From IMG/VR virus record IMGVR_UViG_3300046329_000127: DNA of 64,000 nt; one strand, written 5' to 3'. This DNA is from an uncultured virus (IMG/VR IMGVR_UViG_3300046329_000127) (taxonomy: Duplodnaviria; Heunggongvirae; Uroviricota; Caudoviricetes). Of this stretch, positions 25,268 through 55,139 are shown one piece after another. The notes under the pieces are model-generated. The model saw nothing but the letters and a program-made list of their open reading frames with translations, was not told the origin of the DNA and did not search any database. A program made the translations under genes and the position numbers. Position 1 is the stretch's first letter, and each line of letters starts with the position of its first letter.

Positions 25268-25365
25268 ATTGAGATTTCTATATTTTTCTCCCCCACAAAA
25301 GGCACTCGCTGTAATACGACAAAACGATTCTACACTACTTTATTCCTTTTTTAATTAGCCTTATG

Positions 25366-25605
25366 CTACAAGCCCTTCAAATTAAAGCCAGTGTCACCAA
25401 TATTATTAACAGATTTCTCTAGCACAGATAGCCTAAAAGCATTAGACACATAATGAACTTGCGATGTGTCTTCTATGGCTCGTAACCTTGTCGCGATCGC
25501 ATTAATATCTTTGCGGGCATGATTCAGTAAAGCAAAAAATTTACCCGCTAAGTAAAAGATAATAGCAAACTCAACCAAAGACAAAATAGAAAGAACAATT
25601 ATCAT
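25366..25605 (-). CDS. Small membrane-anchored coiled-coil protein
   Basis: N-terminal TM segment. Confidence 0.55.
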   Translation of the reverse strand: MIIVLSILSLVEFAIIFYLAGKFFALLNHARKDINAIATRLRAIEDTSQVHYVSNAFRLSVLEKSVNNIGDTGFNLKGL

Positions 25606-26033
25606 AATTTTGCTTTTATTAGTTCTATTACTTTTTCCAAAGCCTGTGCCGTTTTTTGGTTTTCTTCATTGCATCTATCGATTAATCGCGATAATTCAAG
25701 GCGATCATTTCTTTGGTTTTCCATCATGTTAGCAACAAATATTTCTTGTTGCTTCATCATCGTAGTAGCAATATCTTGAGAGCGCTGGTTTTGAGATTCT
25801 TGTGCCTTTAACTCAATCTCAGATCGCCTGCCAATGTTTGCAATGTAGCTCTTAAAGCCATTGACTAGTAGCATCCCTAACGATAACGAAATCGATGCCA
25901 CTACTCCATAAGTCGCAATCGGATCGGTGGGCGGTACTGGTATTGGTGCGGGGTTTGGCTGCTGTATTGTTTGAGCGATCACCTCTTGTGTTGGTATTAT
26001 TTTTGGCAGTGGCGATCGCAAAAACAAAAACAT
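25602..26033 (-). CDS. Single-TM coiled-coil protein (possibly holin-like)
   Basis: One TM then coiled coil. Confidence 0.5.
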   Translation of the reverse strand: MFLFLRSPLPKIIPTQEVIAQTIQQPNPAPIPVPPTDPIATYGVVASISLSLGMLLVNGFKSYIANIGRRSEIELKAQESQNQRSQDIATTMMKQQEIFVANMMENQRNDRLELSRLIDRCNEENQKTAQALEKVIELIKAKL

Positions 26034-26043
26034 AAAAACACCC

Positions 26044-26466
26044 CTATACTAAACTCAATGCCAATGTAATTATCGCATCAGTATCAAGCCCTAGCTGGTC
26101 TTTGATAGCAATTACTAAAAGATGGTCTTCTTGGATTTCAGTGGCGTATTCCCACTCGATTTGTGCCGCTCTCTCTAAACTTTGGATAGCAGCTTCGATG
26201 TCATCCAATAAGTCTAGCTGTAATAATGCTAAGCGCAACCTACGATTATCAATTTGTCTGGGTGTAGGTGGTATGGGAACGGGGTCTGCTATAACTACAA
26301 TGTTATCCTTACCCGCTTCATAAACTGCCACTAATACTGATAGCGTTGGCTCTGTAATGCCTGTAAAATCAGGGGCGTTGTTAACCCAAGGTACAGGCGT
26401 AATACAAGGGCTTGCAGGGTCGTTTGATGCACTTTCGATAAAGATTGTTGTTGAGTTGCGGTTCAT
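26044..26466 (-). CDS. Phage fibre-associated / assembly protein
   Basis: RRLRLALLQLDLL...AQIEWEYA motif often seen next to tail fibres. Confidence 0.55.
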   Translation of the reverse strand: MNRNSTTIFIESASNDPASPCITPVPWVNNAPDFTGITEPTLSVLVAVYEAGKDNIVVIADPVPIPPTPRQIDNRRLRLALLQLDLLDDIEAAIQSLERAAQIEWEYATEIQEDHLLVIAIKDQLGLDTDAIITLALSLV

Positions 26467-27014
26467 AAAACCCTCCTACAGATTAAAGACACTGAAAAAC
26501 GGCGAAACCCGCCCGCCGCGCCAATTTTGTCAACGTACCAGTCGAAATGAGTTGCATTTAAGACTAAAACATTCACGGGAAAACTATAATAGTAATTACT
26601 AAGATCAAGGTCAGTAATAGACTTTGAAATACCCCAAAAAGGGCCTGTAGCGGTACTTACATGAAAAGTAAAAGTCCAATAATTTGTACTATCTTGAGGA
26701 CTGTTAGCGATCGCCCCACTAACGACTGCCGTTTCTATAAAAACATTAGGGTAAAAAGCCCCCTCCGCAAACTGATGTTGAGTGACATTCGGCGGGTTAA
26801 TAGGTGAACTACCTGTTTGCACATGTTGCTGATCAGACAGCCAATAAGTGCCATTCCAGAAGCCATCTACGCCAGTGCTAGGGTTATACCACTTATCACC
26901 CACGACAAGTGCAGAGCCATTGATTCGTGCTGTTGGTTTTGTGCTTGTATAGAAGTTGGCAACGCCGTTGATCAGAGTGCCGTTAGCTAATGGATTATTT
27001 AAGTTAATAATCAT
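26463..27014 (-). CDS. Putative virion fibre protein
   Basis: GDKWYNPSTG..FWNGTYW motif. Confidence 0.55.
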   Translation of the reverse strand: MIINLNNPLANGTLINGVANFYTSTKPTARINGSALVVGDKWYNPSTGVDGFWNGTYWLSDQQHVQTGSSPINPPNVTQHQFAEGAFYPNVFIETAVVSGAIANSPQDSTNYWTFTFHVSTATGPFWGISKSITDLDLSNYYYSFPVNVLVLNATHFDWYVDKIGAAGGFRRFSVSLICRRVL

Positions 27015-27751
27015 AGGCTCACTAGCTCCATATTTACTGAACCAAACACCCGCGCATTTGCGGTGTTATCAGTCTTTGCTGACATCTTCAAAGTTTGACC
27101 GACATCTAAGCGCAAACCTTCAGCTTTTATCTCTCCATTAGTTCCTGATGCTAACTTGGTAATACCTTCATAAAGATATTGCGAGATTGTCGCACCATTG
27201 AATGGGTCACGAGTCACCCTTGGAACAACCTCAATTGATTGCCCTTGCACTGATACACAAATAGTTTTTACGTTGATGTAAAAGCCAATAGGACAAGTAA
27301 TCCGTCCTGACCGTGAACGATTACCACCTGCTTCTATCTGTTCATAAATTGTGGTAGGTGTGCCAACTTTCCGTAAGTTGATACTACCGACAGAGACAAG
27401 GTTAGTACCGCCTGTAAGGGCATACATTGAGATAATCGCATTAGCAGTTATGCCAGTCAAAGGAACTGCGGTAGTGCCATTCATGGTTACTGTCGTACGG
27501 GTTAGTACGTTGCTTGCGTTTAGGTAAACGACAGACACTGTTTGAGTGCCAATACCCGCCACACCATCGCTAGCTGATGTACTGATAACCTCTAAAGCAT
27601 CTGCCGTGGTTACTTGGAAAAACACCGTTTGTGTGGTTAAACATTCGCTGCAATCATGCCAGTCATTTGTATTTTGGAACGTAGCATTCCGTTCAAAAGG
27701 AACGCTCCAATGCGTTGTTTCACGGGTTGGGGTGTAATTATTAATATCCAT
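27011..27751 (-). CDS. Putative virion structural protein
   Basis: T/G/V-rich beta composition; VISTSASD...GTQTV. Confidence 0.6.
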   Translation of the reverse strand: MDINNYTPTRETTHWSVPFERNATFQNTNDWHDCSECLTTQTVFFQVTTADALEVISTSASDGVAGIGTQTVSVVYLNASNVLTRTTVTMNGTTAVPLTGITANAIISMYALTGGTNLVSVGSINLRKVGTPTTIYEQIEAGGNRSRSGRITCPIGFYINVKTICVSVQGQSIEVVPRVTRDPFNGATISQYLYEGITKLASGTNGEIKAEGLRLDVGQTLKMSAKTDNTANARVFGSVNMELVSL

Positions 27752-28638
27752 TATGTCACCTCAGTAATTCTTGCAAAGCCGTTGGCAGTAGTCCAAACGC
27801 CTCTGATTTCACCGCTATAGTCCGAACCTTTTAAAGTAACCACGGTGGGTACTCCATTAAGCGCGGGTGCTAAAGCCATTGAAAAATTGCTAGTGCTAGC
27901 AGCGCTTGCGTTGAGGACGATATATAAAATCGAGCTTGAGGCATTGGCAATAATCGCAGTTTGACGATTATTATTTGCGGCTAGCAATGTCACTGAAGAT
28001 GCACTACTAGCCACGTTTGTGATGGTAGAAAGCGCCGCGTAAGATTGATTGACAGATAAGGACAAGCTCGGCGGCTCGATGCCAACAGCGTTCGTGATTG
28101 CTGTTACTTCAACCAATCCATTACCGCCGTCTAGCCCCGCGCTTAATCTGACAATCGCGTTAATTGTTGCGCCCGTGCCACCCGCTTCAGACACAAACAG
28201 CAATCGCACAAACTGAAAGCTACCTTCAAATATGAAGCCATAAGTGCCACTGATAGTTAGAGTTGTGTCTGCGCCCGCAATACTAGCATTTAGCCAGTTA
28301 CTACCATCGTTAGATACTTCCGCTCTAACAGTGACTGATGTACTACCATTTAGCGCCACGGTATAGGCAATTGAAAATTGGCTATACCCAGCCATTGAAC
28401 GCGATGCCGTGGCTGTATTCGCCGCAGTTAGCTGTGCTTCAGTGAATTGCACTTGTGGCAAAGATATTGCTACTAAGTTATCACTAGCGATCGCCACACG
28501 CTGGGTAGTTGCAGTTGTCACACCCGCGCCATATTCGACTGCGGTATTTGCGGCTGCTGATGTTCTTAGTCCGCCACTAACAGGGTCAAAAACAGAATCA
28601 AATATTTCACGCAATCGCGCAATATTTAAACCCGACAT
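27751..28638 (-). CDS. Putative virion structural protein
   Basis: A/T/S-rich; LLAANNNRQTAIIAN. Confidence 0.6.
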   Translation of the reverse strand: MSGLNIARLREIFDSVFDPVSGGLRTSAAANTAVEYGAGVTTATTQRVAIASDNLVAISLPQVQFTEAQLTAANTATASRSMAGYSQFSIAYTVALNGSTSVTVRAEVSNDGSNWLNASIAGADTTLTISGTYGFIFEGSFQFVRLLFVSEAGGTGATINAIVRLSAGLDGGNGLVEVTAITNAVGIEPPSLSLSVNQSYAALSTITNVASSASSVTLLAANNNRQTAIIANASSSILYIVLNASAASTSNFSMALAPALNGVPTVVTLKGSDYSGEIRGVWTTANGFARITEVT

Positions 28639-28641
28639 AGC

Positions 28642-28992
28642 CTAACCCTCCATTGATGCGGAATCGCTAGAAATAGTGATTTGACCTCGTAAATCAAGCC
28701 AGTTAATATCAGGGATTTTGTTGATAAGATCAGGCAGGTCTTTGTATGGTCTAGCTGCAATGATTTTTTTTGCGATCGCCACACCAATTAGAGGGAGGGC
28801 TTGCAATTCCTTGATCGAAGCAGTATTGATATCCGTTGAACCTGTTAGCTCAGTCAAAGCTGCCAGTGGTGAGGCGATCGCGCTTTCTGGTTGATTTGGA
28901 GGAGCAGTAGAATAGCCTTGTCGCAAGTAATCGGCAATATAAGAGCCAAAAGCCTGTACGGACTGTCCATCGATAGAGTATAAAATTGACAT
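28642..28992 (-). CDS. Helix-hairpin-helix (ComEA-like) protein
   Basis: DINTASIKELQALPLIGVAIAKKIIAARPY. Confidence 0.8.
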   Translation of the reverse strand: MSILYSIDGQSVQAFGSYIADYLRQGYSTAPPNQPESAIASPLAALTELTGSTDINTASIKELQALPLIGVAIAKKIIAARPYKDLPDLINKIPDINWLDLRGQITISSDSASMEG

Positions 28993-29057
28993 TGTTTTTA
29001 CCAAGAAATTACTAAAAAGGATAGCAAACGCATTTGTGTTTGCTATCCTCATGAACT

Positions 29058-30386
29058 TTATGCAGTAAGCATCAAGCAACCTTTCTTGTGGTCGGAGAAC
29101 TTAGCACCTAAGAGGCTGTGGTAAGAAAGGATCTGGCTAAGAGTCTTGTTGTCGTAAGCGCCCTTGATTACCGAGATAGCAATCTTGGTAACAGGATCAA
29201 TTTGAGTAGCGCCAACAGCACCCGAATTAGCTTGGGGTAGTGCAATTTCGCGAGAAGAAAGCAATAAACCTTCTTTGTGAGATGCAACGTTAACCGAGCC
29301 GATCGCAGGGATACGAAGTTTATCACCAGCGACAAAATCAGCAGCAGTCAACAGAACACCAGCAGGAGTATAAGGAACACCAGTAATGATCGGAGCAGTT
29401 GTGCCAGCGTTGGCGATCCGTAGGATTACCATGTGCGCCTTGGGTACGTTGCCAGTGGTGCGGATTTGTGCGATTTGACCAACTGCAACGCCACCCGCGC
29501 CGATATACAATGCTGTGCCAGCAGTAAGAGTGACGTTGATCGCTCCTAAAGGAGTAGCGGCAGATTTAGCACTGTCAAAGAATGAAGTGGTGTCTTGAGC
29601 GATGGATGCAACAGGCAATTCAGCCTGAGAACTTGCTGCGGTGTCCATGTCAGATACCGCGATTTGACCATTGACGGTATTGCAAGCACCAGCGCTAAAG
29701 CCATACACAGGCGTAAAAGTATTGTTAGCCAAGCCATCAATAATAAGATCGCCAGATCCTCTAGATGCAGCCGCAAAACCAGTAACACGAACTGAATCAC
29801 CTAAGAATGCGTTCTTAGCAACCGATGACATGACGATGTAGCGATCGCTTGCGGGAACGCTTGCGGTGTCAAAAACTTGTCCAGCGTTGCGAACAACTTG
29901 GTTATCAAAGGATGTGAAAGTACCAGTAGCGTCAACGTTTGCGACTACTTGCACAGGAGCGTTGGCAAAATACTGAACAGCGCCAGAAGTAGCGGCGACA
30001 GTACGGAATTTACCGTACATATAAGCATCGTTGGGAACTGCAATGCCCTTAGCAACTTGAGCGCCAATTTCTACGATATATTTGGCGACTGCCGCAGGCG
30101 CATCATGGCTATAGATTGGGAAACCTTCAGTCCATAGACGTTCGAGGGTTACGGTATCCGTTGCGTAGCTACCTTCGGTGTAAGTAAAACCACCAGCGCG
30201 AGGATCGAAATCTTGTGCTAATTTTTGACGGGCGATACGAATTGTGACTTGCTCACCCCGTTCAAATGTACCGTTTTCATAATCGGTTGTGGCGATCAAA
30301 GGGAAGATCGACATCAAATTGAGAGTAGTTAATGCTTTAGCGGCGATGCTTTGTTGGAGCAGAGCGCTTGTGATTGAAGTGGGCAT
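29058..30386 (-). CDS. Major capsid protein (P22 coat-like)
   Basis: RGEQVTIR, VPASDRYIVM, YGF motifs; terminator hairpin after the stop. Confidence 0.75.
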   Translation of the reverse strand: MPTSITSALLQQSIAAKALTTLNLMSIFPLIATTDYENGTFERGEQVTIRIARQKLAQDFDPRAGGFTYTEGSYATDTVTLERLWTEGFPIYSHDAPAAVAKYIVEIGAQVAKGIAVPNDAYMYGKFRTVAATSGAVQYFANAPVQVVANVDATGTFTSFDNQVVRNAGQVFDTASVPASDRYIVMSSVAKNAFLGDSVRVTGFAAASRGSGDLIIDGLANNTFTPVYGFSAGACNTVNGQIAVSDMDTAASSQAELPVASIAQDTTSFFDSAKSAATPLGAINVTLTAGTALYIGAGGVAVGQIAQIRTTGNVPKAHMVILRIANAGTTAPIITGVPYTPAGVLLTAADFVAGDKLRIPAIGSVNVASHKEGLLLSSREIALPQANSGAVGATQIDPVTKIAISVIKGAYDNKTLSQILSYHSLLGAKFSDHKKGCLMLTA

Positions 30387-30409
30387 TGGAGAGCCAATTA
30401 GTCTTTTTA

Positions 30410-30462
30410 TTCCCCACTAAAGGCGCTCTCAAATTAATAAAGCAGCTTGAGACGCACTGCTT
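30410..30462 (-). ncRNA. Putative structured 5'-leader RNA (pseudoknot + GUGCCUUUNGUGGGG); other copies at 25290, 32061, 32147, 47246
   Basis: Five copies 22-27 nt before virion gene starts, with covarying stems. Confidence 0.6.
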
Positions 30463-30580
30463 AACTAAATATAGCAAATTTTTAATCATTTTCCGTAATT
30501 AAAAATAAAAACAGGTGCTTTTTAGTTACGGAAATCGGCAAAACCTTGTAGGATATAGATACAGACCTACTTATAAGTGT

Positions 30581-31432
30581 ATGGCAACCGAAGAAAACAC
30601 AGAAATCTTGACTGAAACAAGACTAGTTGAAATCATGGGTGGATTTGCAGAGAGAATCCAAAAATCTACCAATGACCAGATCAACGGAGTTTTGAAGTCT
30701 AAAATCAATCCCGTAGCTGATAGCCTTGCCGACATCTCTAAGCAGCTTAGTAGTTTCCAAGAGCTATCTAGTCAGGTGGAAGCCACAAAAGTCCAAATGT
30801 CGGAAATCTTTACCGCATTGCAAGCTCCTGACGATGACCCACCTCAACCCACACCGCAGGCGATCGATATTGAAGCGATTACCGCTAAAATTACAGCCGA
30901 AATTAAAGAGTCCACATCTAAAGAGTATTTAGATCGCATCCAAAAACTTGAATCAGGTATTCAAGAAGAAAGACAGGAAAAGGAAAAAATCAGACAGCAA
31001 CAAATTGAGGGCGATCGCAATAACACGCTTTTAGCATCACTCAAGAAAATCGCTCCTGACTTAAATCTATTCCCAGATCATGAAGATGTGGTCATGAGTA
31101 AATTAGCAAAAGACGGCGTGTTGACCGTTTCTGAAGACGGGACATCTTGGATGGCAAAAACCAAGCGTCAAGACCCTTTTACCAAACAAGTAGAAGAAGT
31201 TGTCGTTGCCGCTTCTCCTGATATCCTGAAATCGATCATCAGCGAAAGCTATTCTTATTACCAGCAGCCCCGTGCTGGCGCTGGGGTTAATGCTGCTCCT
31301 ACTCAGTCGTATAATGCCTCAAACAGGAAGATTACTGATAATACATCAGCAGCAGATATCCAAAAGGGCTTTGCCAGTAACGACCAAGGCATGATTGATG
31401 AAATCGCCGCGATGATCGCCAGTGGGATGTAG
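30581..31432 (+). CDS. Capsid scaffolding protein
   Basis: Acidic coiled coil, PRAGAGV tail, divergent from capsid. Confidence 0.65.
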   Translation: MATEENTEILTETRLVEIMGGFAERIQKSTNDQINGVLKSKINPVADSLADISKQLSSFQELSSQVEATKVQMSEIFTALQAPDDDPPQPTPQAIDIEAITAKITAEIKESTSKEYLDRIQKLESGIQEERQEKEKIRQQQIEGDRNNTLLASLKKIAPDLNLFPDHEDVVMSKLAKDGVLTVSEDGTSWMAKTKRQDPFTKQVEEVVVAASPDILKSIISESYSYYQQPRAGAGVNAAPTQSYNASNRKITDNTSAADIQKGFASNDQGMIDEIAAMIASGM

Positions 31433-31441
31433 TTAATCCAC

Positions 31442-31491
31442 AACAAAAAAGGAGCGATCGCCTATCAATAGGCGATCGCTCCTTTTTTGTT
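31442..31491. terminator. Bidirectional terminator
   Basis: AAAAAAGGAGCGATCGCCTAT/ATAGGCGATCGCTCCTTTTTT. Confidence 0.85.
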
Positions 31492-31493
31492 AA

Positions 31494-31646
31494 TTATTTA
31501 GACTTAGCGGGTTTGACAATTTCGAGTGAGTCGAGCAAGTCATAGGCGATCGCATCGGCAGGATGTAATAAAATCAATTCACCCTCAACCACAGGACGAA
31601 AGCCTTGAAGCTTAAAGGGTTTCAATACCTTGTATTGCTGCTTCAT
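31494..31646 (-). CDS. 50-aa protein (not in track)
   Basis: MKQQYKVLKPF...; TAATG coupling to the upstream gene. Confidence 0.6.
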   Translation of the reverse strand: MKQQYKVLKPFKLQGFRPVVEGELILLHPADAIAYDLLDSLEIVKPAKSK

Positions 31647-32035
31647 TAGCTATTTGCCCTCGCATCACCAGCCAAGGTATAGAAAGCATCAAGATTCAGT
31701 GTCGAGCTAGTACCAACGACTTTTGGTGTGCCTCCTGCGGCAATCGTGAATGGGGCGGTTGTGGCAGTCGTAAGGTTGGTATCAACATATGTTGACGCTG
31801 CTAAAGTTGAATAATCTAACTCGGAGACTTCAAGCGTCAGGCTTCCGCCAGCGTAGCCCGATGGGGTAAGTAAAAAGCGCTTTTCTAAACGGAGTTGAGC
31901 GTTTACAGTTGCATAAACATCAAAGACAAAGCGGCTGTTCGCAGTGTCGTCATAGAGTTTCCCAGTTTGGATAACAGATTCTATTAAGGTTGTGGCAAGC
32001 TTGGGGCGTGTCCAGTTAGCGGATGATAAAGGCAT
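31646..32035 (-). CDS. Putative virion (decoration) protein
   Basis: T/A-rich; same leader as the capsid gene. Confidence 0.6.
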   Translation of the reverse strand: MPLSSANWTRPKLATTLIESVIQTGKLYDDTANSRFVFDVYATVNAQLRLEKRFLLTPSGYAGGSLTLEVSELDYSTLAASTYVDTNLTTATTAPFTIAAGGTPKVVGTSSTLNLDAFYTLAGDARANS

Positions 32036-32224
32036 TTAGAGATACCAGTTTAGTTCTTAGTTCCCCACAAAAGGCACTCCCAAATTAATAAAGCAGTTTG
32101 AGACGTACTGCTTCATTAAATATACCAAATTTTTGCTATATTTAAAGGAGCGATGTGTCTCAGATCGCTTTGTTTCTCTGAGAGTGCCTTTAGTGGGGAA
32201 TTTTAGAATCACTAGGCATTTCTG

Positions 32225-33016
32225 ATGGCTGAGAATTACGCAAATAGAATTTGGAAGCCCCAAATTTCAGGCTTTTCGGTTTTTTACAACAACACTTTAA
32301 GAGTATTAGATACTCCCAAAAGTGCAGAATTAGATTTTGGCTTTAAAGAATTGGTTCGTAGTTCGACATCTTCTCAAGGTGTTGAGGTTGATGTATCTCG
32401 CGAAATTCAAGCAGAAAAGCCTAAGTTCACTGTTGAAATGGGTGGTTTGACTGAAGAAGTATGGGAAATTGTATGCGGTCGCCTATGGCAAGAATCCGCA
32501 TCTGTCGCTACATTCTACGGTCGCAACCGTGATGCGCTCAATACAGTAGCGTGGTCTGCTGACTTGGCTGGCTTTGAGGGCTACGGGATTGTTGCTGACG
32601 CTGTTGGCTATGCTGCCATTTTTAAGGGCGGGCGATCAATCGCATTGACTCAGCAATCCTTTGGCACTTTCAACCCTGCCAATGCTTTGACCTTTGCGGT
32701 TGGCGTAAACGGTGCGATGTTGTTCAGTACTGATACACTTGAGTATCAAAAGTCTTGGAAGGTTCCTCAGACTTTAAGCAATGTGCGTACCATGAGTTCG
32801 ACTAGAGTTGCAAACGTTGGGGTGATCTTAAATATCATCGATGCTTCGTTGTATGTTTATCGTTTTTCGGCTCCAAATTGTCAGCCGATTTTAGACGGAT
32901 CTCAGGTGAACTTTTCTTCAGAAACAACTAAGATTTCTATGGCAGTTCAGTTTGACGGAAGTAGCTGTCGTCCCCTAGACTTTGTGGCTACTGGCTTACG
33001 AGTTAGCCCTTGTTAA
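32225..33016 (+). CDS. Putative major tail tube protein
   Basis: 263 aa, beta-rich, leader motif upstream, terminator downstream. Confidence 0.55.
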   Translation: MAENYANRIWKPQISGFSVFYNNTLRVLDTPKSAELDFGFKELVRSSTSSQGVEVDVSREIQAEKPKFTVEMGGLTEEVWEIVCGRLWQESASVATFYGRNRDALNTVAWSADLAGFEGYGIVADAVGYAAIFKGGRSIALTQQSFGTFNPANALTFAVGVNGAMLFSTDTLEYQKSWKVPQTLSNVRTMSSTRVANVGVILNIIDASLYVYRFSAPNCQPILDGSQVNFSSETTKISMAVQFDGSSCRPLDFVATGLRVSPC

Positions 33017-33029
33017 TTTCGGGCTAGTT

Positions 33030-33076
33030 AGAACAATAAAAAAGCAGTCAAAAATTGACTGCTTTTTTATTGTTCT
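33030..33076. terminator. Terminator hairpin
   Basis: ATAAAAAAGCAGTCAA/TTGACTGCTTTTTTAT. Confidence 0.8.
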
Positions 33077-33180
33077 CCAGTTTCTAAAAATGGTAAAATA
33101 CGCTCGTAGCATTAGTTTAAGCAATCGCTGTTAATTGTTAAGGAATATTAAGAAACGGGATCGCAAACACTGAAAACCTA

Positions 33181-33747
33181 ATGCTGATTGAATATCTAAA
33201 CAACAATCAAGAAACCTACAAAATCGCGATCGCCGCCGAAGCATCAGCCCTTGACCACGAACTCGTCATGCAGCTATGGCTAAAACTGCAAACTATCGAG
33301 ATTGCTAATCACAGGGCTAAAATTTTGGTGCAGGCGATCGCCAACCTATTACCGCGCCGCGATATCCAAGCTAAAGGATTTAGCATTGAGGGATTGACCG
33401 ATGAGCAAATCGCAGCATTATTTTATGGTGAAGACTGCGAGTTTATCAAATCGCATACTCCCAAATTAGAGCCAAAGCAAAGCAAGGTAGGCTCTGCTCC
33501 CATACCTTCAACGGGTAATGCGACATCTGACTTATTGGCACAGCTTACAAGGCAATTTGAGGGACGGATCACTGAGGCTTATTTTCTGGCAGGGCATTTT
33601 AGTTTCAATGCCCTTGATGCTTTCCAACGGACTTATGCTGAAGTGTGCCGAGATCCTGAAGAAAGAAATCGCGAGTATATTTTGGAGTCCTATAATAAAC
33701 AGGTAGAGAGTGATCCAATGTTTAAAATGATGGCTTTAGGAATGTAA
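33181..33747 (+). CDS. Hypothetical protein (possible tail assembly chaperone)
   Basis: Follows the tail tube candidate. Confidence 0.55.
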   Translation: MLIEYLNNNQETYKIAIAAEASALDHELVMQLWLKLQTIEIANHRAKILVQAIANLLPRRDIQAKGFSIEGLTDEQIAALFYGEDCEFIKSHTPKLEPKQSKVGSAPIPSTGNATSDLLAQLTRQFEGRITEAYFLAGHFSFNALDAFQRTYAEVCRDPEERNREYILESYNKQVESDPMFKMMALGM

Positions 33748-33749
33748 TT

Positions 33750-34007
33750 ATGACTTACGCAGAACGTCAGACAATGAATAATTTGACCGCTAATCAACAG
33801 TTTTACAATACTCGCACCACCATCAATTTTGCGGATATGGCGGCTTCTGGTGCTGTTGGCACTGTCGTGGCGATCGATGGTCTAACAGGAAGGGCGATCG
33901 CTAGTATTGCCGATGGTATGGCGCGATATACCGATATCAGTGGCAGCAATCAGCAAGGGGTGACGAATCCTGCGTTTAGTGGCAAGTTTAGCGATGGAAA
34001 GCAGTAG
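33750..34007 (+). CDS. Hypothetical virion-associated protein
   Basis: ORF context. Confidence 0.55.
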   Translation: MTYAERQTMNNLTANQQFYNTRTTINFADMAASGAVGTVVAIDGLTGRAIASIADGMARYTDISGSNQQGVTNPAFSGKFSDGKQ

Positions 34008-36505: not shown

Positions 36506-36509
36506 AATT

Positions 36510-37199: not shown

Positions 37200-37204
37200 A
37201 TTTT

Positions 37205-38110: not shown

Positions 38111-38120
38111 TTTTTTACTC

Positions 38121-38636: not shown

Positions 38637-41352
38637 AGATAGAAATATTGCTGTTTAAAGCAATCGAGTATAAAGACAAGTTACTAACAGCAAGCTTAAG
38701 ATCGATAATCGGAGTCTCCAACCTGATAACATTGATAACTAGATCACTGATAATAACAGGGGAAATTGCAAACCTATACTCAGTAAGATCGTCATAGGTT
38801 GCATCAATTGGCAATGGAAGTCCATTGAATCCAGTAAAGGAATAGACCTCATTCAATTCTACAACAAAGCTATAAGTATTACTGGCAATACTTGTAGGCA
38901 CGATCGCTATCACAATAATATCAAAAGTCGTGCTATCAGTTGCGCCAAGATTATCGGTAACTGTGATAGTGGCAGTAGTTGTCCCCGCACTAGCGATCGC
39001 ACCCCTTAAAATATTGCCAATAATCGACAATCCTAAAGGCAAACTAACAGAGCTAAACACATAGGGAGTAGCGCCGCCAGCCGCCGATAAGCTAATAGAT
39101 GTAGGAACACCCGCAATGAGGTTTTGATGGGGTATATCGCCAATATTTAGCGTACTGGTTAGCAATAAGGGAAAGGGTAAAGGCGGCGTTTGTATTTCTG
39201 GGATCGAGCCTGTTTTGTTGCCGATACCATCCTCGACAAATTGCCATGAATCACCTTCACGGTTTAGTGACACCCCAAAGCGATCGCGGATATAAGCACC
39301 GTTAGCGGCATACACACCTTGAAATGGCTTGTAATTTAGTACAGTGCCATAGCCACAGGCTAATTCACGGCTATAGTGTCGTTGCCATTTTAAGCGTCCA
39401 ATCCTTGCGGCATAGGCTTCGAGTTCACCTTTGGTCGTGAGAGTGTCAGCATTTACAAACTCGTTGTCGTTTACGAATGGCGATATTCCCGCGTAATTAG
39501 TGACTGCACTGCCTAACAATGGTTTTTGAATAACAGGGTAAGGCGCTGGGCGATAAGTGATTTCTGGAATAGAGTTGACAACGGTTTCAGTAGTTTGCAC
39601 ACCAAATAAATACCCCGCCGATGTTTTTGATTGCCCTTTATTTTGGGAGACTTCTTTGCGCTCAATCCATCGCCCTTGACACTCTTTGGTATATACGGTA
39701 TAGGTGCGCTCCAAGGTTACTAAACGCGAAGAAAGTTGACCTAATTTAGTTTGTGGCGGGGCAAAATAGACCTGATCTTTGACTTCATCAATAGAGCTAA
39801 TTTCATAAAGTTTTTGCCCCGCCGCTACGATAATGTCATCTCGGAATATCTCGCGATACCTATATTTTGTCGTTATTCTTTCGGTGATGTAGCGAGTGTT
39901 TAGATTGCTGGGATTATAGCTAAACCAATCACTCAGGGAAGCGTATTGCAAAGCAGTAGGGAACTTAGCCCAAGGTTCGCTGCGAGAGATTACCCTGCTT
40001 ATAATCTTTGATGCGTTCTGCGCTTCAAATGGTACATCTTCATAGGTTGTGATATCAGTCTCTTCAAGGAGATATCGCCATATTTGCCAATCCCAATCAA
40101 ATGAGAAACCATTTTTTTTATACTTCAGCCACCAGTCATAATAATATCCGCCACCACCATTAAGCTTAGTAACTGTATACCCCTTTGCTTGAGGGATCTG
40201 AACGCTAACCCTGCCAAATTGATCGACCTGACCGCCAAACAGAATCAATGCAGGGTTGCCAGCGATTCGCTTAGTGTATCTATAAACGTGCGGAGCTTTG
40301 TCAATTGATGACGCAAGAGTGCGATCTATTGCCCCGTAAAGGCGTAGTCTTCCGTTGATGTAGGTTCCGACAATATTGCCTTTTTGGTAAGCATAGCTTA
40401 CAAATTTATTATCTACATAAACTGGATACCTCAAACCTTTGATTAATTCTTGTTCTGGCGCGATCGCGCCAGCCTGATCGGAAGCGATAAAATTATGCTC
40501 AATCCTAGAAGAAACTTTGTTATATCGCCTTGAAGTATAAGCCCCATTCAGTAAAATCGCCACATCACTATTAGCAAATGTATAAGTGACTTTTGGATAT
40601 TTGTCTTGGCAAACATCAACGTCTTCATGGGTTGCTGACACCGTGATTTTTGCTTTTACAGGGTCTAGCCCTTGCTGCCTTGTGAAATTTAATAGTTCCT
40701 TTCGCGATTTTTGCCACACAATATTTTGCGCGGTCTGTGGGTATTCTGCCCATTTAATTACTTCTTGATCGCTCCACATCCAATAACCACGCTCACCCGC
40801 CATCTTTTGAGCTTCTTTGACGTACGATCCTTTAATACTGCGAGGCACTTTATATATCCCACCAATGCCATAGGGCGGCGTTTGCACAGTGACTGATCGC
40901 CCCATGAGGGATGATTGCTTCTGAATCAGCTTTACGGCTAAGTTATTCCAAGGGTTGTTTTGCCCTGTTTTAAATTCTGGTGCATCGGCGCTGGGTTGAT
41001 AGCTGTCAAGTATGCCAATAATATCGGTGATTTCGATTTCGGCTTGTCCATTATCCTGATTGAATCGATACCCATTAGGCTTGATTCTGAAGCGCTGCCA
41101 TAGGGTGCTTTCAAAGTAAACATCAATCGGTTGTAAGCCTGAGAGCCATCGCGAAGGATTTACTTCGTCATCAAAGAATGATCTCGCAAACCCTGATCGC
41201 ACTGGATACATTTCAATAGTGCCTGTCCAGATCAAGGGTGTTGACGGTTCGGCTAATGGGTGGCGAAACGAAAACCCTACTACAGCATCGGTAATATCAT
41301 CAGAGCCTAACATTATCTGAAATGGCGGTACTTTGAGACTATATCTGGTCAT
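38629..41352 (-). CDS. Tail/baseplate hub protein with Ig-like domain
   Basis: Downstream of tape measure; GGATPYVFS..LPLGLSI..TITVTD. Confidence 0.7.
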   Translation of the reverse strand: MTRYSLKVPPFQIMLGSDDITDAVVGFSFRHPLAEPSTPLIWTGTIEMYPVRSGFARSFFDDEVNPSRWLSGLQPIDVYFESTLWQRFRIKPNGYRFNQDNGQAEIEITDIIGILDSYQPSADAPEFKTGQNNPWNNLAVKLIQKQSSLMGRSVTVQTPPYGIGGIYKVPRSIKGSYVKEAQKMAGERGYWMWSDQEVIKWAEYPQTAQNIVWQKSRKELLNFTRQQGLDPVKAKITVSATHEDVDVCQDKYPKVTYTFANSDVAILLNGAYTSRRYNKVSSRIEHNFIASDQAGAIAPEQELIKGLRYPVYVDNKFVSYAYQKGNIVGTYINGRLRLYGAIDRTLASSIDKAPHVYRYTKRIAGNPALILFGGQVDQFGRVSVQIPQAKGYTVTKLNGGGGYYYDWWLKYKKNGFSFDWDWQIWRYLLEETDITTYEDVPFEAQNASKIISRVISRSEPWAKFPTALQYASLSDWFSYNPSNLNTRYITERITTKYRYREIFRDDIIVAAGQKLYEISSIDEVKDQVYFAPPQTKLGQLSSRLVTLERTYTVYTKECQGRWIERKEVSQNKGQSKTSAGYLFGVQTTETVVNSIPEITYRPAPYPVIQKPLLGSAVTNYAGISPFVNDNEFVNADTLTTKGELEAYAARIGRLKWQRHYSRELACGYGTVLNYKPFQGVYAANGAYIRDRFGVSLNREGDSWQFVEDGIGNKTGSIPEIQTPPLPFPLLLTSTLNIGDIPHQNLIAGVPTSISLSAAGGATPYVFSSVSLPLGLSIIGNILRGAIASAGTTTATITVTDNLGATDSTTFDIIVIAIVPTSIASNTYSFVVELNEVYSFTGFNGLPLPIDATYDDLTEYRFAISPVIISDLVINVIRLETPIIDLKLAVSNLSLYSIALNSNISIYN

Positions 41353-41841
41353 CTATGTAGCCTCGATAAATTTCAAGCCTTTAAGCAGCCAAAGATCACC
41401 GCCTTGGAAAATTATAAATTGAGGTGCTTCGATCTTGAGGTAAGTATTGAAAGCATAAAACCCTAGCGTTGCACCACTCAAGGAAATTATTGAGTCAGGC
41501 ACTAAGGTTCGCGGATGAAACGATGCTTCTGTACTGTCTAAGTACTCATTTTCATCTTGGAGCCAAAATATTCTTGATGAGTCTTGCTTGTACGCCGCCA
41601 AGTATCTGCCTATCAAAGCTTTGTCAGCACTGGTTATTAGTGCGGCTGGTTCCCAGTTGTATGTTGATTTAAAGTTGAGATTACCTTTGTCAGACACGCC
41701 GCCCGTTGCATTCCTTTCCCCAGCGTTAGGATAATCGGCTGGTTCTCTGTTGCATAGCCTTTCTCCACTAGGAACTTTATCCAAAACTAAATTTGGAAAG
41801 CCTGATGTGCCAATCGTTATTCTTCTTAGGGTGCAAGTCAT
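41353..41841 (-). CDS. Putative distal tail protein
   Basis: Between tape measure and hub. Confidence 0.5.
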   Translation of the reverse strand: MTCTLRRITIGTSGFPNLVLDKVPSGERLCNREPADYPNAGERNATGGVSDKGNLNFKSTYNWEPAALITSADKALIGRYLAAYKQDSSRIFWLQDENEYLDSTEASFHPRTLVPDSIISLSGATLGFYAFNTYLKIEAPQFIIFQGGDLWLLKGLKFIEAT

Positions 41842-42242
41842 GAGGCGATCGCGCTGTTTATCTGTCGATATATTACCACTTTTTTAAATTGGTAATGCGA
41901 TCACACCATATCCCCGCAATCAAGAATATGGTGTGATCGCGGATTGGTTACTGTCCTAGAAGCGTCTGCCAGTTTTTAGCATTGCGTAGATAGGCGATCA
42001 CCTCTTCAAACTTGCGATCGGCTACAACTATTTTACCATTTTCCGAAACTGGGAACCTAATAAAAAAGCGCATCGGGGGACGCGCTGTCAAATCAATTAA
42101 TCATATTGATGCAAGTACACCATTTACTAAAACTGGCAATGAGAGCTAAAATAAACTCACAAAACCCGCCAAGCCTATCAACGATGCTGAAACTGTGCGG
42201 GTTCCTTTTTTCTGCCACCCTCATCAATGAGGACACCTAAAC

Positions 42243-45200
42243 CTAAACCCGCAACAACTGACTGGCAACTCGATAGGCGGTCAGATCGGGGCGCGGATCA
42301 TTCGAGAAATTGTTAATCACATTTGGCTTTGTAATGCGATCGCTAAGCTGACTCAACAAAGTATTTTGCAATTTCAATTCTGCCAATAATTCAGTGTTAT
42401 TGATTCTTAAAACTCCACTAATCGCGCCAAAGTTGATATTAGGTAATTGCCCAGAATCAAACACGCCTAACGATCCAAGTTGCTTAGTCTCAGAGGCGTT
42501 GTGAACCCATGTTGGAGCGTCAAATTCGACTGTGCGCTCACCATTCGGCAAAAGCGATGTTTCGAGTGTTTGCAGATTCGTGATCGCCTCTTGCCCACGT
42601 TCGTTAACTGTGACGGGGATATCCGCAGGAGCTAGCCCACCAGTGAAGTATCCCAGTCCTACACTGTCATCTCTTTGAGCTTGCTGTGTTTGCAATTGGC
42701 TTGGGCGTTTCTTATCATTTGCCTTGTTAATCCGTTCCAGCCACGCCTTAGCGACCTCCCCTTCAGGATTACCGATAAACTCTTTAGCTGTTTCTTCGGA
42801 GATAGTTGGATCGATCGCCCGTAGATTAGCAAATTGTTGTTCAGCTTTTTTGTTTACATCCGATCTCAAAGCGTCTGCTTCCTTCCCTTTTCCACTAGCA
42901 ATTGAGTCTAGCTGTTGATCGGTGTAACTGCCGTCCACGTTCTTAGCGATCGCTCTTGTCTTTGCGCGATCAGAAAGAATTTGATTGTTTTGAGATTCGG
43001 CGCTAGCAAGATCTTGTTTGGCTGTACCTAATTGTTTAATATTCTGCCCTTGCTCGGATTGTTTCACCGCCTGTTGTTGGGCTTGTTGTTGAGCGATCGC
43101 CTCAGCTTGCTCCTCACGCGATTTAAAGATCGGGTTTTCACTCAACTCCTTAGCCTGTGCAATAACCTCTTGCAATCCGTTCTTGGTTGCCTTGAGTGAA
43201 TTTGGCAATGATGCAAAATTATCAGCTACTTGCTGACTGGTTCCCTCAAAAGCAACAGCGCCATCGGCAACAGCAGCTAAATCTTGACTGCGTTCATCAA
43301 GGACTTTTTGGACATTTTCAGGGCTTTTTGCGTCAGCTAATTTTTTACGAGCAGATTTTTCGTTGGCGATCGCGGGAGTTCCGACTACACCAGCCTTGAT
43401 CGCCTCAGAAGATTGCAAACCAACCAAGCCCGAATCTGCTCCTGCGATTTTATTCTTGAATTGCGCTCCTTCCTGCTCTTGGTTAAATGTACTGCGTTCT
43501 GCTTCCTGTGTTACTGACAATGTTTGACGTTGTAAATCGCCAATTTGCTTATTGCCTTTGACTTGCTCATCGGTAAGCGCGACTAACTCCAAGGCACTAG
43601 CGATCGCGTCTTTGTCGCCCGAAGCCTTAGCCTTGATTAATGCAATCTTTGCCTCAACCTGTAATTGGCGATCGCGGATTTGTGATTGCTGAATCTGGAT
43701 CTCAAGCTCACGCTTGGCATTAGCTTGATCCTGCTCAAATTTCCTTGCTTTTAGTTCAAGGACTTTTTGCTCTTGATCATAAATCTGGCGGGCGATACCT
43801 AATTCATTTGTGCCAGCACTAATACCAAGTTGGGCGAGTCGTTCGCGAGTGAGTCGTTCCTTTTCTTTATTGATCGCCCCTTCCTTAGAGGCTTTCCGTT
43901 GCTCCGCCGCCGCGTCTTCTTCAGCAAATACCGCTTCCTGTTTCTTCTTGGCTTCTTCGTCAAGCCCTTTAAGTATTTCTTTTCTGTTCGTATCCCTTTG
44001 CTTCTGTTCGTCAGCACTGGCTTTATCGCGACTAGCTTTGAGGATGTCAGCCGCTTCTTTCAATGCCGACAGTTGGTTTTCTGCACCCCTCAACTGTGCA
44101 TCGGCGATCGCACTTTGTAATTTCACCTGTGCGCCCAACAATGAATTTTGAGATTCTAAAAGCTTAGTTACGCGATCGTTGGTAGTTTTCTCAATCTCAA
44201 GGATATTGATTTTTTGCTCGTAAATAATTTTGTTACGGGCAATCAAGTTGTCGGTTGCATCAAGATTTAATTTGGCAATGTCCGACTCTTGACTGCCAAT
44301 CTTTAAAATTAACTCCTCTTTTTCTTTCTGGCTACCAACAAAATTAGCCAAATTAGTTTTGTCAAACTCAAGGACACGGCGCTTGTCTGCGATCTCGCTC
44401 TCGATGGTCTGCTTTTTAATGAGAAGAGACTGCTCTTGAAGTTGATTCTCATTTTCAAAGCCGCCAAGTTTTAAGGCTTGGATATCTGCCTGTGTCGCTA
44501 GTTCGGCTTTCTTGCGTAGATCGGCATTGGCACTGAGTTCGCGATCAAGTCCACCGCGAAGCGCGGCGACTTGTTCCTTAACAAAATCAAGTTCACTCTT
44601 GGTAAGATCGGCGATCGCTTTTTTGCGTTGGGTTATCAAATCCCTCTCAAGCTCTGAACCCTTGACAACGAATTTAAGCTTTTCGTTAATCCCATCAATT
44701 TCAACTTGCTTCTCGCCTGCTTTGAGTTCACCAAGCTTATTGATTCCATCAATTTCACTGAGTAAGCCGCGCTCAATAGTTAGCTGTGTTTCAGACTGAA
44801 ACGCTTGGATAAGTGCAGTCTGCTTTTGGGTTTCAGTGCCAACGATATCGGTTGCCGCCTTAGCCGCCGCCACGCGATCTTCTTTGAGTAGAAACTCGCC
44901 TTGACTGAGAGCTTTTAATCGTTCTAGCCCTGATTCTTTACTGCGAATACCTAACTCAATTTCTTGCTGAAGTACTCCCACAAAGGTTTTTGCTTGTGTA
45001 ACCGCAAGTTGTGTACCTTTTTTAAACTCAGTATAGTAATTATCTGAAACAACATTAAACTGTTGCTTCAGAGTACCTTGATTTATTGCTTTCTGACCTA
45101 AGATCGCTGTTTCGTCAAGAGTATTTGTAACATCTTGCTGGAATTGTTTTAGTCGAGCGATTTCTTCTTTTGCTTCGGCTTCATTGAGCTTGAAAAGCCC

Positions 45201-47225
45201 AAAAGTTTTATTGTTATCAACAGCATCTTGTAAGTCTTTGATCTGACTGGGAATATCCTTTGCGGTATCAGCCAGCAATTTCTTGTAACCTTCAAGCTGT
45301 TTTCTGCCTTCATCTGTAATAGTGCCAGCCTTTTGTTGGTCTTGAAGCTCCTTTAGTCTTTTAGTGAAATTGGCTACATTCCTTCCAACGCCGTCAACAG
45401 TGTTCTTCCAAGCTTCAACCGTATTTTTGGACGCATCCATCGCCGCGTTATACGCAAAGACCCCACCTGTCAGCAAACCGATCGCAACTGCTAGACCACC
45501 AGCAACAACGACTGCTGTTAGTGCGGCTGCAATGAATCCCCCAAACCCTTTAACAGCAGCCGTAATTAATGCGACAACAAGCTTTCCAATGCTCGTTATC
45601 GTGGCAGGGATTGAAACCGTAACGAAAGTTGTTAGGGCTTTAATGGCGGCTGGAATCGCTGTTGACGAAAATAGTAGGAATGATTTTGTCGCGGTAGGAA
45701 TAGTAACAGTCGCGAAAGTTGTTAGCGCTGTGATGGCTACTGGAATTGCGGACAACGCTAAAACCAAAACACCTGTAATGGCGGCTGGAATCACTGTTGC
45801 AAATGAAATTAGCGATGTGACCGCAGTTGTTCCAGCCGCGAGCGCAAACTTTATGATCGCAATAGTTGCCGATGGGATAGCTGCAATGAATGAAGTTATC
45901 CCAGTGAAGATCGCACTGACCAAAGCCAAATTAAAGGCTTGAATGGAAGCAATGGTAGTACCTATTGTTGTGGCGATCGCAGTTAAAGCCACCTTAAATA
46001 CAGCTAAAGCCCCTCCCGCAGTAGTTGAGGCGGCTGCAAACTGGACTTGTAATACAGATATCAGCGCTTGGATACTGGCGACTAACCCTTGGGCGATCGG
46101 TCCTACAAAACCTAGCCGACCAGCGAAAACAGCGATCGCTACTGAAGCTCCATTAACTGCGATCGCCACTAATCCAACAGAAATTACAAACTTTCCAATC
46201 CCAGTATTAGCTAATTCTAGTATCGGAACAATTGTTGCATTTAAAATTGTGGCGATCGCCGACAATGCCCCTAGCACCACATTCAAGGCAACAGATAGCA
46301 GTGGTACAGATGTTTGAGCGATCGCGCCAATGGCAGTAAATAAGCCCTGAATCGTGGGAATAAACTGAGATAGGACAGTGCCGACTTGTGAGGCGATCGC
46401 GACAAGTCCTGTGGTTAGATTGGAGATAAATGATTCGATCCGTGGCTGTGCAGCTAATAAGCTGTAGTAGATTTTAGTTAGCTGTGCAACGACTGGCGGT
46501 AATACGACCTTCCCAAAGCTTTCTTGCAGTCTTTGGAATACTTCAAGGATATTAGAAGATACGCCGCCAAAAGTTTTAGCCACCAAGCTCTGCGCGGCGG
46601 CTAGAGCTTCTGTCTTTTTTAGTAGGAACTCAACCAAAGTCCCTTTAGCTTTTTCTTGCTGGATCTGAGTATTGTTGATTGCAAGAGTTTTAGCCAAGGC
46701 GCTGTTTTGATCAATAGTCCCCTGCAAGATACTGGTTATTTCTTGCCGAGAGCCAGCCAAAGGTATTGATAATGCCGAAAACGAACTTCCGAAAGCTTTC
46801 GTTAATTTCGCGGCATCATCTAGGCTTGCGCCAATGTTCCCAACTTCACCTGAGATGATCTGAAATACACCAATGAGGTCGTCAGATGTGACGTTAGCAA
46901 GCTCAAGACTGTCTTTCCTTACTTGCGCGATCGCCTTATTAACCGATGGCGCTAATTTATTAATCCTCTCCAAAGGATCGGCAATACTTGTGCCAAACGA
47001 CTGAATATCATTTGTCGCAGATAGAGCGCCCCGAATACTAATTAACTGCTGCTCTAATTGGATCGAGCTACCCACTAGGCTCTGAAACGTACCGTTGGCG
47101 ATCGCGCCGAATGACTGAATCCCAAACTTTAGGTTGTTCAACGCAAATAAATTACGCTGAAACCCCTTTAGGAGTTCATCTAAACCATCTGCGGAAATCT
47201 CTAAATCAAGTCTGCGAGATGCCAT
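42243..47225 (-). CDS. Tail tape measure protein
   Basis: 1660 aa; hydrophobic Ala-rich segment, long coiled coil, C-terminal GYFTGG..VNERGQE. Confidence 0.9.
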   Translation of the reverse strand: MASRRLDLEISADGLDELLKGFQRNLFALNNLKFGIQSFGAIANGTFQSLVGSSIQLEQQLISIRGALSATNDIQSFGTSIADPLERINKLAPSVNKAIAQVRKDSLELANVTSDDLIGVFQIISGEVGNIGASLDDAAKLTKAFGSSFSALSIPLAGSRQEITSILQGTIDQNSALAKTLAINNTQIQQEKAKGTLVEFLLKKTEALAAAQSLVAKTFGGVSSNILEVFQRLQESFGKVVLPPVVAQLTKIYYSLLAAQPRIESFISNLTTGLVAIASQVGTVLSQFIPTIQGLFTAIGAIAQTSVPLLSVALNVVLGALSAIATILNATIVPILELANTGIGKFVISVGLVAIAVNGASVAIAVFAGRLGFVGPIAQGLVASIQALISVLQVQFAAASTTAGGALAVFKVALTAIATTIGTTIASIQAFNLALVSAIFTGITSFIAAIPSATIAIIKFALAAGTTAVTSLISFATVIPAAITGVLVLALSAIPVAITALTTFATVTIPTATKSFLLFSSTAIPAAIKALTTFVTVSIPATITSIGKLVVALITAAVKGFGGFIAAALTAVVVAGGLAVAIGLLTGGVFAYNAAMDASKNTVEAWKNTVDGVGRNVANFTKRLKELQDQQKAGTITDEGRKQLEGYKKLLADTAKDIPSQIKDLQDAVDNNKTFGLFKLNEAEAKEEIARLKQFQQDVTNTLDETAILGQKAINQGTLKQQFNVVSDNYYTEFKKGTQLAVTQAKTFVGVLQQEIELGIRSKESGLERLKALSQGEFLLKEDRVAAAKAATDIVGTETQKQTALIQAFQSETQLTIERGLLSEIDGINKLGELKAGEKQVEIDGINEKLKFVVKGSELERDLITQRKKAIADLTKSELDFVKEQVAALRGGLDRELSANADLRKKAELATQADIQALKLGGFENENQLQEQSLLIKKQTIESEIADKRRVLEFDKTNLANFVGSQKEKEELILKIGSQESDIAKLNLDATDNLIARNKIIYEQKINILEIEKTTNDRVTKLLESQNSLLGAQVKLQSAIADAQLRGAENQLSALKEAADILKASRDKASADEQKQRDTNRKEILKGLDEEAKKKQEAVFAEEDAAAEQRKASKEGAINKEKERLTRERLAQLGISAGTNELGIARQIYDQEQKVLELKARKFEQDQANAKRELEIQIQQSQIRDRQLQVEAKIALIKAKASGDKDAIASALELVALTDEQVKGNKQIGDLQRQTLSVTQEAERSTFNQEQEGAQFKNKIAGADSGLVGLQSSEAIKAGVVGTPAIANEKSARKKLADAKSPENVQKVLDERSQDLAAVADGAVAFEGTSQQVADNFASLPNSLKATKNGLQEVIAQAKELSENPIFKSREEQAEAIAQQQAQQQAVKQSEQGQNIKQLGTAKQDLASAESQNNQILSDRAKTRAIAKNVDGSYTDQQLDSIASGKGKEADALRSDVNKKAEQQFANLRAIDPTISEETAKEFIGNPEGEVAKAWLERINKANDKKRPSQLQTQQAQRDDSVGLGYFTGGLAPADIPVTVNERGQEAITNLQTLETSLLPNGERTVEFDAPTWVHNASETKQLGSLGVFDSGQLPNINFGAISGVLRINNTELLAELKLQNTLLSQLSDRITKPNVINNFSNDPRPDLTAYRVASQLLRV

Positions 47226-47286
47226 TGGGAAATACTAAGCTTAATTTCCCCACGAAAGGCACTCGCATCACTGCGACAGCCTTATT

Positions 47287-55103: not shown

Positions 55104-55139
55104 AATTACAGGGAACAAATTTTAAATCCACCTCAAAGG

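Follow-up and report, generated by a model that had tools for sequence, protein, structure and literature searches.

How are virion genes spread over both strands of one phage genome brought under common control, and does this control operate on DNA or on RNA? The question is raised by a 64,000-nucleotide (nt) stretch of an uncultured virus, i.e., IMG/VR record IMGVR_UViG_3300046329_000127 (hereafter the window, meaning this whole stretch), which is a new tailed phage of cyanobacteria and in which a 17-nt motif, GAGYGCCTTTNGTGGGG, stands in five copies ahead of genes such as that of the major capsid protein. The reading favoured here, at about even confidence and as judged from the sequences compared, is that the motif would belong to a new cis-acting leader RNA switch gating the translation of virion genes lacking a Shine-Dalgarno (SD) sequence, by which these genes would be coordinated.

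An exact motif ahead of operons

Within the 64 kb, GAGYGCCTTTNGTGGGG finds five matches, all with 0 mismatches, and no site with one or two mismatches, where 0.05 matches are expected by chance and none of 100 shuffles reaches five; when up to five substitutions are allowed, the next-best sites carry at least three mismatches and none stands before a gene start. The copies occur on both strands, always ahead of the first gene of an operon, with gaps of 22-27 nt between the motif end and the ATG (Table 1). A preliminary description of this DNA had reported five copies before starts on both strands, 22-27 nt upstream of them; the count, the placement and the spacing are all confirmed, as are four of the positions, the first copy lying at 25291 instead of 25290. 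Between the paralogous copies, the flanks have diverged to 89% (copies 30412 and 32063, across 74 nt), 76% or 72% identity, or are unalignable, while the motif is intact throughout.

As regards the genes led by the motif, the open reading frame (ORF) at 29058-30386(-) encodes a major capsid protein of HK97/P22 fold (predicted fold with pLDDT 79; Foldseek match to P22 gp5, E 5e-14), a fold that bears out the earlier capsid assignment of the gene at 30386(-). The 1660-aa ORF at 42243-47225(-) had been called a tape measure gene and finds no family match in profile searches, but its size, its position and its similarity to the longest ORFs of relatives (1321-1419 aa) make it a putative one. The 125-aa gene at 24890-25267(-) is conserved beside the capsid gene in relatives.

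A short hairpin covarying among relatives

The capsid protein has 33 homologs, and ENA and Logan runs contain relatives with capsid homologs at 66-89% identity. Loci were recovered from genomes, IMG/VR and metagenomes; searching IMG/VR with the single protein returned nothing, whereas an alignment-based search did find relatives, and across 401 genomes of the phylum the capsid family was met in the centre genome only. The one close relative with an upstream region, locus L032 (83% capsid identity), keeps the -10 box, the two helices S1 and S2 described below and the motif with two changes. Distant relatives (35-43% capsid identity) carry their own genome-specific versions of the motif, namely (i) the prophage contig G002:C86, which has an integrase and three exact copies of a 22-mer, none being present elsewhere in this 7.2-Mb genome, plus one variant, (ii) the provirus G003, with three copies, before the capsid gene, the portal gene (phrog_145, E 1e-20) and a 290-aa gene, and (iii) G001, L029, L037, L041 and L046, with a single copy each, ahead of the capsid gene. 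Relatives at about 46% capsid identity have no such leader, the capsid gene coming directly after its upstream gene.

All these versions contain G-CC...GG followed by AUG(Y), where the window has GAA, and they fold into a hairpin (H1) closed by CC and GG, with a loop of 3-18 nt. On an alignment of 10 sequences (A5), 38 of the 43 cells of H1 pair, three of its five pairs change on both sides, and the observed score is reached by none of 500 shuffles. The fourth pair (6-27) shows three G-C, two A-U and two U-A; since the variant copy within G002 supplies one of the U-A pairs, the change arose between paralogs of a single genome. The stem extends to 7 base pairs (bp) in L029 and is reduced in the window to a mini-version of three pairs, CCU[UUNGU]GGG, with the variable N of the motif in its loop. 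An exact-motif scan of IMG/VR gave 14 single matches on 14 contigs, none multi-copy, which were taken as chance, and a loose motif pattern (3 mismatches) did no better on the relatives than its reversed-pattern control.

No known family accounts for the element, in agreement with the preliminary description: an Rfam 15 search of the window gives abiF at 42165-42202(+), away from the motif, as its sole match, and a search of 30350-32260 at E up to 10 returns only sub-threshold hairpin-type (miRNA-like) matches, on the divergent palindromic region.

The pseudoknot as an accessory structure

The structure initially described, for three of the copies, was an H-type pseudoknot. On an alignment of the three pseudoknot-type window copies and L032 (A3), its helices S1 (7 bp) and S2 (6 bp) pair in 51 of 52 cells, as had been described, with a loop 1 of 3 nt, a loop 2 of 0 nt and a loop 3 of 9-11 nt, i.e., an H-type layout; the compensatory pairs, three in number, all come from the 32182 copy. 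The cells include G-U but no A-C, one being non-standard in another way. The score is equalled by 13 of 500 shuffles, and slid registers pair in 28-54% only. The hairpin UCGCA-GUGA-UGCGA before the 47248 copy is likewise present, as claimed. The pseudoknot is nonetheless accessory and not the conserved core, since it occurs in only three of the five window copies and in L032 and since its covariation comes from one paralog; the core common to the relatives is H1.

Pairing of the motif with start regions

By prediction, the G-run of H1 plus the following bases can alternatively pair with a pyrimidine tract at the start codon (H2), e.g., GGGAUGUCC/GGACAUCCC in G001 and GGGAUGCU/AGCAUCCC in G002, and because both helices use the G-run, H1 and H2 are mutually exclusive. 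For 15 of 17 copies, a count leaving out L029, the best predicted duplex between G-run and start region has its end within -3 to +8 of the AUG. When the stretch from the motif to +12 is folded and compared with dinucleotide shuffles of its downstream part, the mean z-score of the minimum free energy (MFE) is -1.31 over 18 copies, five of them at p <= 0.05.

In the window, pairing of the motif with its own five start regions averages -14.2 kcal/mol, against -9.4 (sd 2.9) for 37 other ATG-initiated genes (Mann-Whitney p 0.002). Both halves contribute to the comparison of own genes with the 37 others, namely the motif 5' half GAGUGCC against -20..+10 (p 0.0005) and the G-run part GUGGGGAAU against -14..+1 (p 0.018). 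In the MFE folds of the three pseudoknot copies and of L032, the motif 5' half joins the GGC..pyrimidine tract just before the AUG, and in copies 25291 and 47248 it joins AUG-GC together with the codons that follow. An SD-like sequence in -20..-4 is found in none of the five motif genes, compared with 15 of the 37 others.

Natural variation at the capsid leader could be followed in four DNA runs partially covering a 2-kb stretch, which yielded one divergent metagenome contig of 176 nt (run X10, depth 3). There, motif positions 30421 and 30419 are changed, the GG at 30394-30395 is deleted, the tract has turned into a C-run and 30383 is changed; on this one contig, the G-run keeps its C-run partner while GCC now faces AUG-GC, a new pairing over the AUG.

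Promoters and transcription

A -10-like hexamer lies upstream of all five copies, i.e., TATATT with TGn in three cases, TAGAAT and TAAAAT. The extended -10 boxes TGCTATATT or TGGTATATT precede the three pseudoknot copies, just where the preliminary description had placed them, and TAGAAT and TAAAAT (copies 25291 and 47248) sit in a common TAGYGTARAAT-N7-GTCG frame; two of the five, with a -35, passed a simple promoter scanner. With starts about 7 nt past the -10, the transcript would begin with S1 or the GNRA hairpin, and the motif would follow at about +33 or +14. The upstream helix of both leader types uses the first GA of the motif and consequently competes with the long-range pairing between GAG(A) and the start region.

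Two other promoter-like families are spread over the window. A near-consensus sigma-70 promoter (TTGACA-17-TATATT) occurs in five copies (11943-11999, 16154-16210, 17848-17904, 18574-18630 and 55050-55106, all on the + strand) within a repeat of 57-130 nt, each before a + strand gene, and probably represents an early promoter class. A second element, present in at least seven copies (Table 1), reads TTTCGGAAAATGGTAAAAT or TTTCGGAAAATGGTAAAATAGT toward the gene; it combines an extended -10, TGGTAAAAT, with a conserved upstream box and may represent a middle promoter class. Just upstream of the capsid -10 box lies a degenerate version of this element.

With such sigma-70-type promoter families and no phage polymerase or sigma factor found, the phage is probably transcribed by the host RNA polymerase. 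The window ORFs revealed no RNA polymerase, sigma factor or antiterminator family (Pfam, PHROGs and NCBIfam), about 10.6 kb of the source contig lying outside the window. Nor was any RNA polymerase, sigma or Q family present in 46 large ORFs (44 of relatives, two of the window) or in 84 smaller ORFs of the G002 prophage. Similarly, no PF00940 RNA polymerase was detected in G001, G003 and the whole 7.2-Mb G002, a weak negative since the control likewise matched nowhere. Candidates for a factor acting on the motif are (i) a CxxC..CxxC protein at 22513-22806(+), of which a homolog was found in the G002 prophage (E 3e-8) and none in G001 or G003, (ii) a 138-aa protein at 57348-57764, common to G001, G002 and G003, on which ESM Atlas gave nothing, and (iii) the phage HU protein at 49954-50229.

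A working model and what weighs against it

Sense-strand G-U pairs, covariation around a variable loop, partners near the AUG in varying registers and upstream -10 hexamers point to a transcribed, folded element, and the exact genome-specific version of the motif in all copies suggests a phage-encoded reader. In the model proposed, the host RNA polymerase would start about 7 nt after the -10, i.e., 13 nt (25291, 47248) or about 32 nt (30412, 32063, 32182) upstream of the motif. In the open form, the upstream helix (S2 or GNRA hairpin) would hold the first bases of the motif and the mini-hairpin CCU[UUNGU]GGG, corresponding to H1 in the relatives, would form. In the closed form, the motif 5' half GAGYGCC and the G-run would pair with the GGC..pyrimidine tract at or including the start codon (H2/A in relatives), which would block ribosome entry on genes without SD sequence. 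A phage-encoded factor may read the motif and tip the balance between the two forms; most likely it would open the start sites late in infection, much as Mu Com does on mom mRNA. That such a factor exists, what kind of protein it is and which of the two forms is "on", we infer. As for the cis-regulatory RNA initially proposed before virion genes, an action in cis and at the RNA level is thus favoured by the covariation, by G-U without A-C cells and by the complementarity to start regions, with the pseudoknot as an accessory.

Several observations weigh against this model. The H1 of the window has just three pairs, and RNAalifold, applied to a MAFFT alignment of nine capsid leaders, returns three basal H1 pairs with no covariation term, because the parts of variable length are misaligned by MAFFT. 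The covariation of S1/S2 stems from one copy, and paralogs are not independent samples. Excess folding is absent from five of the 18 copies (z -0.04 to +0.32), including the window copies 30412-30428 and 32063-32079, and the non-motif gene 48843, with a score of -19.1, surpasses every motif gene in complementarity to the motif. No RNA-binding factor was found in window and relative ORFs (Pfam, PHROGs and NCBIfam). None of the runs with the sequence, among 24 listed, is an RNA run, so that the transcription start and the presence of the motif in mRNA are what we infer. Lastly, a DNA site bound by a phage protein would account just as well for the genome-specific exactness of the motif.

Alternative explanations

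The alternative that survives best, albeit rather unlikely, is such a DNA-level site, i.e., a phage-specific late promoter or transcription-factor site, with transcription starting at or near the G-run and leaders of 26-31 nt. Being exact within a genome and different between genomes, the motif behaves as promoters co-evolving with a phage polymerase or factor would, and it is always positioned ahead of the first operon genes, one G003 copy coming directly after a terminator-like hairpin. Promoters of T7-type single-subunit RNA polymerases are exact repeats of about 20 nt before genes of either strand, in which GGG follows an AT-rich stretch, and the AT-rich TA(G) followed by GGG resembles their -1/+1 junction. 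However, such a polymerase was detected neither in the window nor in the relatives, and the searched ORFs hold no PF00940 polymerase, sigma or Q family (within the limit of the 10.6 kb mentioned above); covarying hairpins and upstream -10 hexamers, the latter before all five copies, are not T7 features, and the relatives are integrase-bearing prophages. Moreover, H1 stems covary across loops of 3-18 nt, which a dimeric DNA site would not allow, and the bases that precede the G-run pair with start regions in registers that vary.

An RNA element without a role in translation is an unlikely explanation as well; it could be a nut/put-like antitermination site or an element of RNA stability or processing, either a 5' hairpin acting against RNase E/J or an RNase III-type site. 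The lambdoid nut (boxA/boxB) and HK022 put RNAs are multi-copy, phage-specific leader hairpins just downstream of promoters, and here too hairpins are multi-copy and genome-specific, recalling the boxB sites, with the motif shortly after the predicted transcription starts of long operons and 5'-terminal hairpins in all copies; terminator-like hairpins are found in or after the units (26519-26499(-) and 42086-42067(-)). Yet nut and put act on transcription elongation and need no start-codon pairing, and the tight coupling of 22-27 nt to the start codon, together with the start-region complementarity, would be superfluous for antitermination or stability. Apart from a weak KOW match (E 4.5e-4), the searches brought up no N-, Q- or NusG-like protein, and the helices lack the length and regularity of typical RNase III sites. 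That the 17-mer is functionless in a recently duplicated promoter-leader cassette, as the 89% identity of copies 30412 and 32063 might suggest, is highly improbable, given that the motif is intact where the flanks are at 72-76% or unalignable and that versions of it persist before capsid genes at 35-43% capsid identity.

Further candidate readings were rejected, namely (i) an SD role of GUGGGG, which pairs weakly (by eye) and lies 22-27 nt from the AUG, (ii) an upstream ORF at GGGAUG in relatives, which is not general, the window motif having no AUG, and (iii) a riboswitch, two copies being without pseudoknot and Rfam giving no match.

Genomic context

The HIP1 octamer GCGATCGC is frequent in the window, and freshwater metagenome runs contain its sequence. 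Among the products encoded by the window are DnaB, ThyX, a terminase with intein signature, a dCTP deaminase and a pol III beta clamp. In the phage reference set, neither the capsid gene region nor the protein has a match (blastn, tblastn), and the terminase gives matches at 26% identity or less only; the window phage marks a lineage without relative in the phage reference collection.

The intein signature of the large terminase, 5001-6860(+), is an intein-splicing-domain match at residues 163-198 (E 1e-8, just under the Pfam cut-off), ahead of the Terminase_6N domain. The HU/IHF-family protein at 49954-50229(+) (PF00216, E 1e-33) is 63-68% identical to G001 and G003 genes; the default ORF call had preferred an overlapping ORF on the opposite strand. 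Two paralogous radical-SAM proteins, 8958-10181(+) and 14151-15488(-), lie on opposite strands, their DNA arms being 72-76% complementary, and each is 44-51% identical to one G001 gene; together with the dCTP deaminase and ThyX, this pair hints at nucleotide or DNA modification. Among the relatives, at least seven proteins start with a Rho_N/HeH-like domain (loci L093, L094, L099 and L101 of G003 and G002:C86), including the products of two motif-led genes, G003 13378-14250 and G002 56003-56938.

Various repeats were also noticed. The very start of the window (1-116) is a perfect inverted repeat of 58+58 nt without spacer, which a fold-back artefact of assembly could explain, as could a hairpin end. 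Five to six tandem 15-nt repeats (ACCACAAGTGGACAA) at 58539-58699, within ORF 58228-59325 and just upstream of the DnaB-like gene, are iteron-like and a possible replication origin. Between convergent genes, 31442-31491 holds a perfect 24-bp palindrome containing HIP1 and resembling a bidirectional terminator, and identical 49-nt palindromic terminator-like repeats occur at 18962-19010 and 19333-19381, 371 nt apart. The abiF RNA is the only Rfam match at gathering score in the window (39.6 bits vs 37, E 0.001); it falls in the intergenic space following the 1660-aa ORF, its strand being opposite to that of the virion genes, and two tandem 46-aa ORFs (41948-42233(-)) lie next to it.

Table 1. 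Coordinates of the motif copies, their leaders and the second promoter-like element in the window.
Feature	Position	Strand	Description
Motif copy GAGTGCCTTTTGTGGGG	25291-25307	-	23 nt before ATG 25267 of the 125-aa gene 24890-25267
Motif copy GAGCGCCTTTAGTGGGG	30412-30428	-	25 nt before ATG 30386 of the major capsid gene 29058-30386
Motif copy	32063-32079	-	27 nt before ATG 32035 of the 129-aa gene 31646-32035
Motif copy	32182-32198	+	26 nt before ATG 32225 of the 263-aa gene 32225-33016; divergent from the 32063 copy
Motif copy	47248-47264	-	22 nt before ATG 47225 of the 1660-aa ORF 42243-47225
Capsid leader	30384-30476	-	TGCTATATT 30476-30468; S1 30462-30456 with 30446-30440; S2 30452-30447 with 30432-30427
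Capsid leader, downstream part		-	motif, then partner tract GGCTCTCC 30395-30388, ATG 30386
Leader of 31646-32035	32033-32127	-	TGGTATATT 32127-32119; S1 32113-32107 with 32097-32091; S2 32103-32098 with 32083-32078
Leader of 31646-32035, downstream part		-	motif, then partner tract 32046-32038, ATG 32035
Leader of 32225-33016	32134-32227	+	TGCTATATT 32134-32142; S1 32148-32154 with 32164-32170; S2 32158-32163 with 32178-32183
Leader of 32225-33016, downstream part		+	motif, then partner tract GGCATTTCT 32215-32223, ATG 32225
Leader of the 1660-aa ORF	47214-47289	-	-10-like TAAAAT 47289-47284, overlapping the stop of a KilA-N ORF; hairpin UCGCA-GUGA-UGCGA 47276-47263
Leader of the 1660-aa ORF, downstream part		-	motif, ATTTCCC 47233-47227, ATG 47225, GGCATCTCGC 47223-47214
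Leader of 24890-25267	25258-25332	-	-10-like TAGAAT 25332-25327; GTCG..CGA stem 25320-25306
Leader of 24890-25267, downstream part		-	motif, TCTC 25274-25271, ATG 25267, GGCGCTGC 25265-25258
Second promoter-like element	11141-11162, 24061-24082, 30477-30498, 42027-42048, 50966-50987, 52360-52381	-	24-190 nt before genes
Second promoter-like element	33078-33100	+	24-190 nt before genes

Relation to known systems and significance

Translational operators are known from T4, where, in the gene 32 and RegA systems, one phage protein controls one or many mRNAs through an H-type pseudoknot at the 5' end or a conserved site in the start region. Those proteins are repressors of early and replication genes, though, and their operators are A/U-rich and located at the start codon, unlike the motif, a G-rich block 22-27 nt upstream of it. 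The closest layout is that of Mu Com/mom, where a short hairpin stands beside a "translation inhibition structure" with the start codon in its stem and the phage protein binds the hairpin, start signals becoming exposed (PMC6483171). By prediction, the leaders described here likewise have a start-codon-sequestering helix beside a short hairpin, H1 being next to H2/A. Mu has one target, in contrast to the three to five per genome found here before virion genes; a Com-like zinc-finger family, moreover, was not detected in Pfam searches of 26 of the 43 small ORFs. One half of the Com SELEX motif, GAG(N)2CC, matches GAGYGCC, likely by chance, having five specified bases and being the weakly bound half.

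No description of the motif leader was found in the literature. A 2023 survey lists five unnamed candidate RNAs upstream of a capsid family in IMG/VR, which may overlap the leaders of G001 or G003 (PMC10690425). The leader is rated as a new RNA family of a known general kind, i.e., a translational operator or switch, the unusual feature being its regulon-wide spread over virion operons.

Accounts of late-gene control in tailed phages usually place it at transcription, with sigma factors, activators or antiterminators as the agents. A tentative and somewhat doubtful extension of the model is that a clade of cyanobacterial phages and prophages may time virion production mainly by translation, the same RNA switch heading every virion operon and its sequence co-evolving with a putative phage RNA-binding protein that would open self-occluded, SD-less starts. 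If true, the "late switch" of these phages would be regulon-wide and made of RNA rather than of promoters. A structured leader shared by all virion operons, across phages with capsids at only about 35-45% identity, would constitute a new RNA family; it would serve as a handle for spotting virion operons in unannotated cyanophage genomes and would provide a testable case of regulon-wide translational control where SD pairing is weak.

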